Below, piece by piece: positions 34,310 to 41,429 of a stretch of 64,000 nt of DNA; positions within the stretch are counted from its first letter, which is position 1, and each line of letters begins with the position of its first letter. The DNA lies in UHGV virus genome UHGV-0042229. The stretch is one strand, 5' to 3'. The position numbers and the translations under genes were made by a program. Under the pieces are notes generated by a model. That model did no database searches. It was given only the letters and a program-made list of their open reading frames with translations, and was not told the origin of the DNA. Origin of the DNA: a virus.

Positions 34310-34510
34310 TTATCTGCTGCCCGGCATTCTCTGTTTAAGCACAACCATTTCCTGACGGCATAACACAGCAATAGCGGTCCTGGCACCAATTTGCTTACCA
34401 ACCAGGTATTGCTTTACCTCGCTGCGACTCACGCCATCAAGAAGCATCTTTAACGCTTCACGGGACAATTTGTTGTATTTGCGTGCCATTAATCTACTCC
34501 GCAGAACCAT
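34310..34510 (-). CDS. small protein downstream of doc (PdcA-like position)
   Basis: 66-aa ORF overlapping the doc stop. Confidence 0.3.
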
Positions 34511-34874
34511 ACAATCTACGTAACGTGTCGGCGACAGAAGATACAGATATCTCTCCGGTCGCAGCCCCTACGGTAAGGTCTGCCAGTTCAGGTGAATCAA
34601 ATACCTGCACCCCGTTACGGCGTAGAAATAACAGCGCACTGTTTAGCGCGGTACGCTTATTGGCATCATTGAATATATGCCCTCTCGCTGTAGCCACCAG
34701 GTAGGTGGCGGAGACTTCGAAAAGGTCGGTGATCTCTTCGTAGGCAACTCTGGCCTGAACTCTCCCGATAATGGCCTCTGCCCTACCCGGATCTGACATT
34801 CCCGGCAGGCCGCCGTAGCGGTTTATATTCGCATCATGAAGCGCAATAAGTTCTTCCGGTGATATATGCCTCAT
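34494..34874 (-). CDS. doc: Doc toxin (Fic-family kinase)
   Basis: 126 aa [22 protein letters not shown]... with Fic motif [11 protein letters not shown]. Confidence 0.9.
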
Positions 34875-35095
34875 TATCGGTTAACCAGTTCCTTGTTGGT
34901 GGAGTCCAGGGTGTCAAACAGGGATGCAAATTCAGCATCCAGCGCCGCTTTTTTGTAGGCTTCGAAAGTAGCCTTGCTGACAATTACTGCTGGCTCACGG
35001 CCTCTGCGGGTGATTTCAACCTCTTCCCCGGCTTCAACATTGTTGAGCACTTCAGAAAGGTTGCCGCGCGCGGTACGGAAGTTAATGGATTGCAT
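34874..35095 (-). CDS. phd: Phd antitoxin
   Basis: 73 aa [39 protein letters not shown]...; stop overlaps the doc start. Confidence 0.9.
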
Positions 35096-35271
35096 AAACA
35101 CCTCGTGTACTCGTTATGTGTACACAATTATAAACTTCACAGGCATAAAGCACCAGCACTTTGCGGCTTAACAAACCTCTAGGCAGATCATTCGTAGCCT
35201 AATGTCCGAACTGCTAAAGCATCCAAGTTGCTGTAGAATCACCGCCAATTACATAAGCCTGAAATAAGTGG

Positions 35272-36833
35272 ATGAAAATGACAAGTATTCAACAACGTGC
35301 AGAGCTTCATCGTCAAATCTGGCAAATTGCTAACGATGTCAGGGGTTCGGTCGATGGATGGGATTTTAAGCAATACGTTCTGGGCGCACTTTTCTACCGT
35401 TTTATCAGCGAAAATTTTTCCAGCCATATGGAAGCCGGTGATGACAGTATCTGTTATGCGAAACTGGATGACAGCGTAATTACTGATGACATTAAAGACG
35501 ATGCCATCAAAACTAAAGGCTACTTCATCTACCCCAGTCAGCTTTTCTGCAACGTAGCTGCGAAAGCAAATACCAATGACAGACTGAATGCGGATTTAAA
35601 CAGCATCTTCGTTGCTATCGAAAGTTCTGCTTACGGTTACCCTTCAGAAGCTGACATCAAAGGTTTGTTTGCTGATTTCGATACCACCAGTAACCGCCTG
35701 GGTAACACCGTTAAGGATAAAAATGCCCGCCTGGCCGCGGTTCTGAAAGGGGTTGAAGGGTTAAAGCTTGGCGACTTTAACGAACATCAGATTGACCTGT
35801 TCGGCGATGCCTATGAGTTCCTGATTTCTAACTATGCGGCAAATGCCGGTAAGTCAGGCGGTGAGTTCTTTACACCGCAGCACGTCTCCAAGCTGATTGC
35901 ACAACTGGCTATGCACGGGCAGACCAGCGTTAACAAAATCTACGACCCGGCAGCGGGTTCCGGCTCACTGTTGTTGCAGGCGAAAAAACAGTTTGATAAC
36001 CATATCATCGAAGAAGGTTTTTCGGTCAGGAAATCAACCATACGACCTATAACCTGGCGCGTATGAACATGTTTTTGCACAACATCAACTACGACAAGTT
36101 TGATATCAAGCTGGGCAATACGCTGACTGAACCGCACTTCAGAGATGAAAAACCGTTTGATGCCATCGTTTCTAACCCGCCGTATTCGGTGAAATGGATT
36201 GGCAGCGATGACCCGACGCTGATTAACGATGAGCGTTTTGCCCCGGCTGGCGTTCTGGCCCCCAAATCCAAAGCTGACTTTGCGTTTGTATTACATGCGC
36301 TGAACTATCTTTCGGCCAAAGGTCGTGCTGCGATTGTCTGCTTCCCGGGTATTTTTTACCGTGGCGGCGCAGAGCAGAAAATCCGTCAGTATCTGGTCGA
36401 TAATAACTATGTCGAAACCGTAATTTCACTGGCTCCGAACCTGTTCTTTGGCACCACCATTGCCGTAAACATTCTGGTTCTGTCCAAACATAAAACGGAT
36501 ACCAACGTTCAGTTTATTGATGCCAGCGAACTGTTCAAAAAAGAGACCAACAACAATATCCTGACCGATGCCCATATCGAACAGATTATGCAGGTATTTG
36601 CCAGCAAGGAAGATGTTGCTCATCTGGCGAAATCTGTTGCGTTTGAGACTGTTGTCGCGAATGACTATAACCTGTCGGTAAGCAGCTATGTGGAAGCCAA
36701 AGATACCCGCGAAGTTGTAGATATCACTGAACTGAATGCCGAACTGAAAACCACCGTCAGCAAAATCGACCAATTGCGCAAAGATATTGATGCGATTGTG
36801 GCTGAAATTGAAGGCTGCGAGGTGCAGAAATGA
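35272..36833 (+). pseudogene. hsdM: type IC HsdM (EcoR124-family) interrupted by a -1 frameshift
   Basis: Two ORFs (35272..36066 and 36063..36833) together cover an HsdM with FxGxG-like AAGSGSLL and NPPY; reading frame switches at the T5 run 36018..36022. Confidence 0.85.
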
Positions 36834-38104
36834 GCGAGTTGAGTTATCTGGAAAAATTGCTGGATGGGGTTGAGGTTGAGTGGAAATCTTTGGGTGAAAT
36901 TGCCACTAAAATTTACTCAGGGGGAACCCCGGATACAAAAAGAAAAGAGTATTGGGAGAATGGAACTATTCCCTGGATGAGTTCTGGCGAAGTGAACTTA
37001 AAAAATATTGAAAGGACAGAGAAATATATTACTGAGGCTGGATTAAATAACTCTAGTGCCAAATTAGTACCGAGAAACTCTGTAGTCATAGCCTTGGCTG
37101 GTCAGGGAAAAACTCGAGGTAAAGTAGCAAGAATCCGTATCGCATTAGCTACTAATCAATCACTTGCAGCACTTACATTTGATGAAAAGAAATTCAGTTC
37201 CGATTACGTATTCCATTTTTTAGAGACTCAGTATGAGAGTTTGCGTCAAATATCATCTGGAAACAGCGGACGCGGCGGACTAAATCTGCAAATGATTTCA
37301 GCATACAAAATCCCAATTCCCTGCCCGGATAATCCGGAAAAATCCCTTGCCATCCAGTCTGAAATCGTTCGGATTCTGGACAAATTCAGCGAGCTTACAG
37401 CAGAGCTTACAGCAGAGCTTAACATGCGTAAAAAACAGTACAACTACTATCGCGACCAGTTGTTGCGTTTTAAAGAGGGTGAGGTTGAGTGGAAGACTTT
37501 GGGGGAAATTGGAGATTTTACATATGGATATGCAGCCAAAGCCATGGATTCAGGAGATGCCCGTTTCGTGAGAATTACTGACATAAATAAAGACGGGAAG
37601 CTATCGAAAGAAAACCCAATGTACGTTGAATTAAATGAGGAAAATGAGAAATATACCTTAGACAAAAATGATTTACTCATGGCAAGAACTGGGGCAACCT
37701 TTGGTAAAACAATGATTTTTGAAGAAGATTATCCAGCAGTATACGCTGGTTTTTTAATAAAGTTGAACCTAAATAAAACGATTATTAATGCCAAATATTA
37801 CTGGCACTTTGCACAAAGTGATTTTTTTTGGGAACAGGCTAATAAATTAGTATCTGGTGGTGGGCAACCACAGTTTAATGCTAATGCACTGAAACAAGTC
37901 AGAGTACCTATTCCATACCCATCTCACCCTCAAAAATCTTTAGACGAACAGGGGCGTATTGTGGATATTCTGGATAAGTTTGATGCAATCGCAGCTTCCA
38001 TCACCGAAGGTCTCCCGCGTGAAATCGAGTTGCGCCAGAAACAATACGAGTACTATCGTGATTTACTGTTCAGTTTCCCGAAACCTGAAACTGTCAGTAA
38101 TTAA
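36830..38104 (+). CDS. hsdS: type IC specificity subunit HsdS
   Basis: Conserved N-terminus [24 protein letters not shown], central repeat TAELTAEL, C-terminal conserved region [27 protein letters not shown], two variable TRDs. Confidence 0.85.
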
Positions 38105-38225
38105 TTGACCATTGCTACCGACCGGACCACCTTAACATCCGGTCTGTATATAGACTATTTTTTACGTGCCGGAAGTCACCCTTAACTCCCTTCCGGCCCT
38201 TGCCAGACGGCACAAAGGATGCGCT

Positions 38226-41200
38226 ATGACTCATCAGACACACACTATTGCTGAATCCAATAACTTTATCGTCCTTGATAAGTACATCAAAGCTGAGCCA
38301 ACAGGCGACAGCTACCAGAGCGAATCGGACCTGGAACGTGAACTGATTCAGGACCTGCGGAATCAGGGCTATGAATTTATATCCGTAAAATCTCAGTCGG
38401 CTATGCTGTCCAATGTTCGGGAACAGCTTCAGAGCCTCAATGGTGTGGTGTTTAATGACAGCGAGTGGCGGCGTTTCACGGAGCAGTATCTGGACAACCC
38501 GAGCGATGGCATTCTGGATAAAACCCGTAAAATCCATATCGACTATATCTGCGACTTTATTTTTGACGACGGGCGACTTGAGAACATCTATTTGATAGAT
38601 AAAAAGAATCTCATGCGCAATAAGGTGCAGATTATCCAGCAGTTTGAACAGACGGGTTCTCATGCTAACCGTTATGACGTCACGATCCTGGTTAATGGCT
38701 TACCACTGGTACAAATCGAACTGAAAAAGCGCGGCGTGGCGATTCGTGAGGCTTTCAACCAGATACATCGTTACAGTAAAGAGAGTTTTAACAGCGAAAA
38801 TTCCCTGTTTAAGTATCTGCAACTGTTTGTCATTTCTAACGGCACCGATACCCGTTACTTTGCCAACACCACAAAGCGCGATAAAAACAGTTTTGATTTC
38901 ACCATGAACTGGGCGAAATCAGACAACACGCTGATTAAAGACCTCAAAGACTTTACCGCTACCTTTTTCCAGAAACATACTCTGCTGAATGTTCTGGTGA
39001 ACTACAGCGTGTTTGACAGTAGTCAGACGTTACTGGTGATGCGACCGTACCAGATTGCCGCCACCGAGCGCATTCTGTGGAAAATTAAGAGCTCCTTTAC
39101 AGCGAAGAACTGGTCAAAACCGGAAAGCGGTGGGTATATCTGGCACACTACCGGTTCTGGTAAAACCCTTACCAGCTTTAAAGCCGCGCGTCTGGCAACA
39201 GAGCTGGACTTTATTGATAAAGTCTTCTTTGTGGTCGACAGAAAAGACCTCGATTACCAGACCATGAAGGAATATCAGCGTTTTTCGCCAGACAGCGTCA
39301 ACGGCTCGGAAAATACCGCAGGCCTTAAACGAAATCTGGATAAGGACGATAACAAAATTATCGTCACTACTATTCAGAAACTCAATAACCTGATGAAAGC
39401 AGAAAGCGACCTGCCTGTATATAATCAGCAAGTGGTGTTCATATTTGATGAATGCCACCGCAGCCAGTTTGGAGAAGCGCAGAAAAACCTGAAGAAGAAA
39501 TTCAAACGCTATTATCAGTTTGGTTTTACCGGCACCCCTATTTTCCCGGAAAACGCCTTAGGCTCAGAAACAACCGCCAGCGTATTTGGTCGTGAATTGC
39601 ATTCGTATGTAATTACCGATGCGATTCGTGACGAAAAAGTGCTCAAATTCAAGGTGGACTACAACGATGTGCGGCCACAGTTTAAGTCTTTAGAGACAGA
39701 AACTGACGAGAAAAAACTAAGTGCGGCTGAAAATCAGCAGGCGTTTCTTCATCCCATGCGTATTCAGGAAATCACGCAATATATTCTGAATAATTTCCGC
39801 CAGAAAACTCACCGTACCTTCCCTGGCTCAAAAGGTTTTAATGCTATGTTGGCAGTGAGCAGCGTGGATGCCGCGAAAGCCTATTATGCGACGTTTAAAC
39901 GGTTACAAGAAGAAGCCGCTAATAAATCGGCTACCTATAAACCGCTGCGTATTGCGACAATCTTCTCCTTTGCCGCCAATGAAGAACAAAATGCCATTGG
40001 TGAAATTTCCGATGAAACTTTTGATACCAGCGCAATGGACAGCAGTGCTAAAGAGTTTCTGGACGCTGCAATTCGTGAATATAACAGCCATTTTAAAACT
40101 AACTTTAGCACCGACAGTAACGGTTTTCAGAACTACTATCGTGATTTAGCCCAGCGGGTTAAAAATCAGGATATCGATCTGCTAATTGTCGTGGGGATGT
40201 TTTTAACCGGCTTCGATGCTCCAACATTGAACACGCTATTCGTCGATAAAAACTTGCGTTTTCACGGCCTGATGCAGGCATTTTCCCGCACCAACCGTAT
40301 TTATGATGCAACTAAAACCTTCGGTAATATCGTCACTTTCCGGGATCTGGAACGCTCAACTATTGATGCCATAACGCTGTTTGGTGACAAAAACACCAAA
40401 AATGTGGTGTTAGAAAAGAGTTATACAGAGTATATGGAAGGCTTTACTGATGCTACTACTGGTGAAGCTAAACGCGGCTTCATGACAGTAGTTTCAGAAC
40501 TGGAACAACGGTTCCCTGACCCTACCAGTATTGAAAGTGAAAAAGAGAAGAAAGACTTCGTTAAACTGTTTGGCGAATACCTGCGTGCCGAGAACATCCT
40601 GCAAAACTATGATGAATTTGCCACGCTAAAAGCCCTGCAACAAATCGATCTTAGCGATCCTGTTGCGGTAGAAAAATTCAAAGCAGAACATTATGTGGAT
40701 GATGAAAAGTTCGCTGAATTGCAAACAATTCGTCTCCCTGCTGATCGCAAGATTCAGGATTATCGTTCTGCCTATAACGATATTCGCGACTGGCAGCGCC
40801 GTGAGAAAGAAGCTGAGAAAAAAGAGAAATCAACCACTGACTGGGATGACGTAGTTTTTGAGGTCGATTTGCTGAAGTCTCAGGAAATAAACCTGGATTA
40901 TATCCTTGGACTGATTTTCGAACACAACAGACAAAATAAAGGCAAGGGCGAAATGATCGAAGAGGTCAAACGCTTAATTCGTTCAAGCCTAGGGAACCGT
41001 GCTAAAGAGGGCCTGGTGGTCGATTTTATTCAGCAAACGAACCTGGATGATTTACCGGACAAAGCCAGCATCATTGACGCATTCTTTACGTTTGCTCAAC
41101 GCGAACAGCAACGTGAAGCAGAAGCATTGATAAAAGAAGAAAATCTCAATGAAGATGCAGCAAAACGCTATATTCGCACGTCTTTAAAACGCGAATATGC

Positions 41201-41342
41201 CACCGAAAATGGCACAGAATTAAACGAAACATTACCAAAACTTAGTCCGTTGAATCCGCAATATAAAACGAAAAAACAGGCAGTTTTCCAGAAAATCGTC
41301 TCGTTTATTGAGAAGTTTAAAGGGGTAGGCGGAAAAATATAG
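38226..41342 (+). CDS. hsdR: type IC restriction endonuclease subunit HsdR
   Basis: 1038 aa from [20 protein letters not shown]...; helicase motifs TGSGKT and DECH; ORF track start at 38166 lies upstream in frame. Confidence 0.9.
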
Positions 41343-41429
41343 CCCAATTCGTGTTTTTCTTGCGGGTTCTTTATTAAACCCGCAAGAGATCGTGGGGTTC
41401 CAAATGGCTAATATACTCCCCTTACCCAT

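Follow-up and report, generated by a model that had tools for sequence, protein, structure and literature searches.

A type IC hsdS gene with a two-unit TAEL repeat on a P1-like phage-plasmid and its natural one- and three-unit alleles

Type I enzymes are grouped into families by complementation, antibody cross-reaction and sequence (PMC3874165). Within the EcoR124 family, the target is GAA N6 RTCG for EcoR124I, with two TAEL units, and GAA N7 RTCG for EcoR124II, with three; EcoDXXI and EcoprrI also carry three units each (PMC3874165). Hybrids of EcoR124I and EcoDXXI that were altered in their target recognition domains (TRDs) and in unit number recognise exactly the predicted sequences, and the change in unit number has been ascribed to unequal crossing-over at the repeat (PMC3874165). 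When EcoR124II loses one unit it becomes EcoR124I, and the phages that are restricted change as predicted (PMC10644984). The distance between the methylated adenines is 7 bp in EcoR124I and 8 bp in those family members that have four additional residues (PMC12707154). The premise of the original prediction for the locus described here, namely that two versus three TAEL copies set the spacer of the target, is therefore borne out by the literature as N6 versus N7, also in TRD hybrids (PMC3874165, PMC10644984, PMC12707154). A link between repeat copy number in hsdS and methyltransferase specificity is also known from the phase-variable type I systems that carry simple sequence repeats (SSRs) (Atack et al. 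2019, PMC7383803).

The locus lies in the virus genome UHGV-0042229, of which a stretch of 64,000 nucleotides was analysed (referred to below as the window). It very probably represents an hsdS gene of the type IC EcoR124 family on a P1-like phage-plasmid, in which the TAEL repeat acts as a spacer ruler. The repeat is an ordinary member of a well-understood family, and its mechanism is textbook. In the proposed model, the N-terminal, central and C-terminal conserved regions of HsdS would form an antiparallel coiled coil that carries two exchangeable TRDs, each of which would read one half of a bipartite target. Each 12-bp unit would lengthen the central helix by four residues and so move the TRDs one base pair of target spacer further apart. 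For the TRD pair found here, we infer this spacer rule by extrapolation from the literature on EcoR124 and EcoDXXI.

The hsd operon and its P1-like surroundings

The features of the locus are the following.

35172-41417, + strand: hsd cassette of 6.2 kb, which replaces positions 84483-87969 of P1 (NC_005856)
35272-36833, + strand: hsdM, split into the open reading frames (ORFs) 35272-36066 (264 aa) and 36063-36833 (256 aa)
36830-38104, + strand: hsdS, type IC specificity subunit of 424 aa, matching PF01420 in two stretches
36884-37309, + strand: TRD1, about aa 19-160, GC 0.39
37310-37513, + strand: central conserved region with the TAEL repeat, the helix that spaces the two TRDs, about aa 161-228, aligned to residues about 150-212 of 7bst_A
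37391-37421, + strand: exact period-12 tract of 31 bp or 2.6 units (GAGCTTACAGCA twice, followed by GAGCTTA), encoding 10 residues
37514-37921, + strand: TRD2, about aa 229-364, GC 0.36
37922-38101, + strand: C-terminal conserved region, the second coiled-coil helix, placed by alignment to 7bst_A
38226-41342, + strand: hsdR, 1038 aa, with its ATG at 38226 in an ORF that opens at GTG 38166

The operon is arranged as in type IC systems, with hsdM and hsdS overlapping and hsdR separate: the hsdM stop and the hsdS start share 4 bp (ATGA, 36830-36833), and hsdR begins 121 bp past the end of hsdS. In Pfam, HsdM_N and N6_Mtase are found on the two halves of hsdM, Methylase_S on HsdS in two stretches, and HSDR_N, ResIII, SWI2_SNF2, a T1R_D3-like domain and EcoR124_C on HsdR. 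HsdR is near-identical to the EcoR124 subunit (PDB 2W00/7BST) from end to end (residues 1-1038, 2297 bits), and HsdM with one base restored differs from EcoR124 HsdM at only a few of the 518 residues aligned (1-518, 1149 bits). This near-identity of the repaired HsdM and of HsdR to the EcoR124 subunits implies a type IC system. HsdS also has the type IC layout, in which a short N-terminal conserved region is followed by TRD1, the central helix with the TAEL repeat, TRD2 and a C-terminal conserved region. Against the EcoR124 HsdS chain 7bst_A it shows three near-identical blocks, which comprise the first ~25 residues, the central region including TAELTAEL, and the last 55 residues. The assignment to the EcoR124 family made in the original prediction is thus upheld by HsdR, by the repaired HsdM and by the conserved regions of HsdS. 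The alignment with EcoR124I proposed at the same time returned the same scaffold with two different TRDs and, as judged from the sequence, this type IC system combines the EcoR124 scaffold with TRDs of its own.

The window is an hsd cassette in an otherwise P1-like phage-plasmid backbone, in which the stretch from 41400 to 64000 is about 98% identical to phage P1. The P1 genes that the cassette replaces are pmgT-pmgU-pmgV-upfM/N/O-hot-lxr-humD. The GenBank annotation of P1 notes that P1 sequence extends to these same junctions in the flanks of the EcoDXXI hsd genes and downstream of R124/3 hsdR, which implies that the classical type IC loci share this insertion site. Directly upstream of hsdM and divergent from it lies the phd-doc addiction module (34494-35095, - strand), so that the cassette is flanked by a plasmid-stabilising toxin-antitoxin pair; beyond phd and doc, a DUF968 protein and a BPP1_LPA-family protein are encoded. 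The P1-like stretch also contains tRNA genes for Met-CAT, Thr-TGT and Asn-GTT at 54892-54967, 56399-56474 and 56477-56552, all on the - strand.

Copies of the same genes are also found in E. coli chromosomes (L003, L005-L008), where the homology to the window covers only 35266-41342, that is, the three hsd genes. At the chromosomal site, the copies are bordered on one flank by a GTPase-family gene and an Ag43 adhesin gene, and on the opposite flank by an IS5-family element. The relationship between the plasmid and chromosomal lineages is a mosaic one. In comparison with the P1-like plasmid pLR-48_1, the hsdS of the window differs at one site in TRD1 and at six sites in the 3' conserved region, five of the six matching the chromosomal lineage, and the divergence from this plasmid amounts to about 4% in hsdM (35278-36833) and 0.5% in hsdS. 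This pattern suggests that recombination may have taken place within the conserved regions.

The repeat tract and its natural copy-number variants

Two copies of the 12-bp unit CTTACAGCAGAG stand head to tail on the + strand of hsdS, at 37394-37405 and 37406-37417, as found in a scan of the 64-kb window; anywhere else in the window, no further copy of CTTACAGCAGAG occurs, even with one mismatch permitted. The sequence around the repeat at 37380-37430 reads ...GACAAATTCAGCGAGCTTACAGCAGAGCTTACAGCAGAGCTTAACATGCGT..., and TRF scores the hsdS repeat as 3.0 copies at 37387-37421. Apart from the tract at 37391-37421, the 64 kb contain no exact period-12 tandem of 24 bp or longer, and 200 first-order Markov simulations give a mean chance expectation of 0.005 such tracts. 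The repeat sits in the central conserved helix of the product of hsdS (ORF 36830-38104). The two tandem TAEL repeats that had been read in this conserved region are therefore both present and in frame at 37394-37417. The interval originally given for them, 37385-37420, does hold both DNA copies but is one codon off for the 12-residue TAEL-repeat peptide quoted with it, which is coded by 37388-37423. A weak 9-bp repeat in the C-terminal conserved region (37957-37976, 2.2 copies, TRF score 33) is probably due to chance.

The same TRD pair is carried by seven complete E. coli genomes, and the number of repeat units differs among them. Of the P1-like plasmids, pLR-48_1 carries two units, against three in pLR-71-1_3 and pP377-1; apart from this, the hsdS genes agree base for base. 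In a chromosomal island, two units are found in F138 and three in MB19, PSS-08-2 and PSJ-14, again with hsdS otherwise identical. The chromosomal alleles have the unit ACCGCTGAGCTT preceded by T-A, and the allele of the window has the unit ACAGCAGAGCTT preceded by S-E. One-unit alleles of the same TRD pair exist in both unit backgrounds (P0007 on contig L008 and P0008 on contig L009, 420 aa), each from a single short-read assembly; on L008, which carries P0007, hsdM (518 aa), hsdS and hsdR (1038 aa) are all intact. Alleles with identical TRDs thus differ by whole 12-bp units only, as expected of a TAEL spacer switch: lengths at the repeat differ in exact steps of 12 bp, and the reading frame is kept in the verified full-length alleles. 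The C-terminal conserved region does not vary in length across the one-, two- and three-copy alleles.

The original prediction had held that the copy number can change and had proposed a PCR screen for variants with one or three repeats. Public E. coli sequences, in place of PCR, yielded both, so that the same TRD pair is now seen with one, two and three units. The occurrence of this series in two unit backgrounds, on plasmids and in a chromosomal island, implies that the change in repeat number is real and recurrent in nature. Taken together, the plasmid, chromosomal and one-unit alleles require at least four independent gains or losses of 12 bp on one TRD pair. The copy number would shift by slipped-strand mispairing or by unequal crossing-over inside the exact 31-bp tract. 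In the two-unit allele of the window the adenines would be methylated 7 bp apart, in the geometry of EcoR124I, and the natural alleles that carry this TRD pair with three units would read unchanged half-sites across a spacer longer by one base. To our knowledge, there is no characterised natural type IC enzyme with the activity and spacer of the one-unit form.

Variation of this kind is also found with other TRD pairs. In one case, L014 has three units and L015 has two, and the neighbouring HsdM and HsdR proteins are identical; in another, P0022 has two units against one in P0034 and P0038. The lineage of L014 and L015 lacks two residues after the repeat (KEVEWK versus KEGEVEWK). A survey of unit numbers drew records at even intervals from the 1362 E. 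coli records with a match to the central conserved region; the unit number was read from how far the query and subject spans differ, and was checked by sequence at four loci. Among the 57 informative rows, about 34 have two units, 21 have three and 2 have four (~60%, 37% and 3%). The four-unit alleles, L012 (PSJ-12) and L013 (AB_24_S34), are both hsdS pseudogenes disrupted by IS elements. EcoDXXI with four TAEL units is said to have relaxed spacer recognition. Of 5426 complete E. coli genomes, 1273 contain a match to the central region.

Roughly one complete E. coli genome in four therefore has a type IC hsdS, and the switch known from EcoR124I and EcoR124II in the laboratory is shown to operate widely in the wild. 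The two-unit form may be more common than the three-unit form. The natural series of one, two and three units on one TRD pair, together with the frequencies of the unit numbers, is the only point of modest novelty here.

Specificity of the TRD pair and state of this copy

The two TRDs are AT-rich, as had been noted from the sequence: their GC contents of 0.39 and 0.36 compare with 0.44-0.46 in the three conserved regions of hsdS and with 0.48 in the window. TRD1 aligns poorly with TRD1 of EcoR124I, and TRD2 has no detectable collinear match to TRD2 of EcoR124I. The sole cross-match between this HsdS and EcoR124 is that of TRD1 here to TRD2 of EcoR124I, at about 29% identity as counted by hand from the alignment. 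By this alignment, the enzyme lacks the homologous TRDs that would mark it as an isoschizomer of EcoR124I or EcoR124II. Half-sites derived from TRD homology were considered and rejected as unreliable, given that TRD1 is only ~29% identical to EcoR124I TRD2. Deriving the motif from site avoidance was likewise rejected, as plasmids of ~100 kb offer too little statistical power.

The two modules differ in how often they occur. TRD1 is the rarer one, with at least 99% identity in only 5 PLSDB plasmids and 80-90% in 3 more, and is joined to three TRD2 clusters among the matches listed. TRD2 is common, with at least 99% identity in 49 PLSDB plasmids, and is joined to at least 21 different TRD1 clusters among the matches listed. 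The plasmids that carry TRD2 are mostly about 85-190 kb in size and non-mobilizable, which is in line with a P1-like origin. TRD2 is thus a common shuffled module, and modular shuffling of TRDs is expected for the type IC family. The original description of the TRDs as novel-looking goes too far: they differ from those of EcoR124I, but as sequences they are not new, since the exact HsdS protein of the window is already in a public collection and both TRD modules are public many times over.

Names and published motifs were also searched for this TRD pair. The close database relatives (at least 98% identical) and the HsdS proteins that share one of the TRDs bear only generic names of the type "restriction endonuclease subunit S". 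The literature search returned no mention of the four RefSeq accessions of this HsdS or of its TRD peptides, and broader literature searches gave no lead on the specificity of the pair. Methylome studies of E. coli ST131 and ST101 contain no type IC motif that can be linked to these TRDs. A phage sequence collection contained no full-length match to this hsdS.

Three other readings of the locus have to be weighed. One takes the repeat as a fixed structural feature, with copy differences that arise by chance or as assembly artefacts and do not switch specificity. The one-copy alleles, resting as they do on single short-read assemblies, would fit such a view, but the two- and three-copy alleles come from closed genomes with hsdS otherwise identical and in two unit backgrounds, the differences in the tract are exact 12-bp multiples that leave the verified full-length alleles in frame, and an array of 12-36 bp is shorter than, or similar in length to, the k-mers of assemblers, by which reasoning collapse is not expected. 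As the conversion of EcoR124II to EcoR124I moreover alters phage restriction as predicted (PMC10644984), this reading is effectively refuted. A different question is whether the TRD pair belongs to an enzyme that has already been characterised, for example a two-repeat form of EcoDXXI (TCA N6 RTTC) or another enzyme in REBASE, in which case the specificity would not be new. The hsd cassette does have the exact P1 junctions (84482 and 87969/87970) that are annotated for the EcoDXXI and R124/3 hsd flanks, three-copy alleles of the TRD pair are found on P1-like plasmids and EcoDXXI also has three copies, and a motif assignment in REBASE is plausible given the many long-read E. coli genomes that carry these TRDs. 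However, the generic names of the proteins at least 98% identical and the lack of a literature match for the four accessions or the TRD peptides speak against it, as does, more weakly, the lack of detectable similarity between TRD2 and TRD1 of EcoR124I, which reads GAA as the C-terminal TRD of EcoDXXI also does. An enzyme that is already characterised is thus rather unlikely. With more confidence than this, though still tentatively and with somewhat less than even conviction, we propose that the TRD pair represents an uncharacterised type IC recognition sequence, for which wild E. coli hold the series of one, two and three units on P1-like phage-plasmids and in a chromosomal island, with spacer switching as a recurrent and ongoing form of diversification.

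The third reading, that of an inert remnant, does not compete with the reading of the repeat as a spacer ruler but qualifies it. As the original prediction had already supposed, hsdM needs repair. A 1-bp deletion at 36017/36018 falls between motif I (AAGSGS) and motif IV (NPPY) and splits the one from the other; the sequence is GAAGG[C/T]TTTTTCGG in the aligned intact relatives and GAAGGTTTTTCGG here. An intact hsdM of 1557 bp is present in all seven complete-genome relatives, and the same deletion is also present in ENA ERZ910759, a 91-kb human-gut metagenome contig identical to the window, and in a contig of GCA_900526765.1 to which the window is likewise identical. Not all three subunits are therefore intact, which concerns the activity of this copy and not its family membership. 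Type I enzymes depend on M2S for methylation as well as for restriction, so that with a frameshifted hsdM this element probably has no active system. Its enzyme is probably absent, or produced at trace level only, and the broken hsdM probably leaves the number of repeats phenotypically silent in this copy. On balance, the evidence leans towards a remnant that forms neither an M2S methylase nor an R2M2S nuclease and in which the TAEL repeat has no current function. Several points temper this. The genes hsdS and hsdR and both halves of hsdM are free of other lesions, which makes the break in hsdM either recent or an error. The ERZ910759 contig takes its name from run ERR209739 and the two records may share one set of reads, so that an error of sequencing or assembly in the T-run could account for the deletion. 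If tRNA-Phe slipped by -1 on GGT TTT T, the wild-type EEGFFGQ would, from the sequence, be restored exactly, and the T5 run could also allow reversion.

LR-48 versus LR-71-1 and F138 versus MB19 are ready strain pairs in which the rule that one unit equals one base pair could be examined on new half-sites.

Comparison with described systems

Among the systems to which the locus can be compared are the SSR phase-variable type I systems. They share with it an hsdS repeat that changes in copy number; they differ in that the change here concerns two to three in-frame 12-bp units and a change of spacer, not an ON/OFF switch of expression. A long hypermutable simple-sequence tract is absent from this locus, which has only 2.6 units of 12 bp, and the polymorphism is seen between strains.

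EcoprrI (CCA N7 RTGC) belongs to the same family and has the three-TAEL scaffold. The gap between hsdS and hsdR here is 121 bp, whereas the prr operon of EcoprrI contains prrC, which lies between its hsd-type genes. EcoDXXI (TCA N7 RTTC) has the same P1 flanks, with phd at one end and pap at the opposite end, and the same junctions according to the P1 annotation. It has three TAEL units against two in the window, and its hybrids with EcoR124I behave additively (PMC3874165).

The locus can further be compared with the type IC prototype EcoR124I (GAA N6 RTCG; PDB 7BST, 2W00), which has the same gene order, the same HsdS scaffold, two TAEL units and near-identical HsdM and HsdR. Because both have two units, the predicted interval between the adenines is 7 bp in either system. 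EcoR124I differs from the locus in both TRDs, in having T-A before the repeat in place of S-E, and in its unit, which is ACCGCTGAGCTT as opposed to ACAGCAGAGCTT here; hsdM, in turn, is frameshifted only in the element described here. EcoR124II (R124/3; GAA N7 RTCG) has other TRDs as well, but it stands to EcoR124I as three-copy alleles such as those of pLR-71-1_3, pP377-1 and MB19 stand to the two-copy allele of the window, with one extra 12-bp unit in an otherwise unchanged gene in each case.
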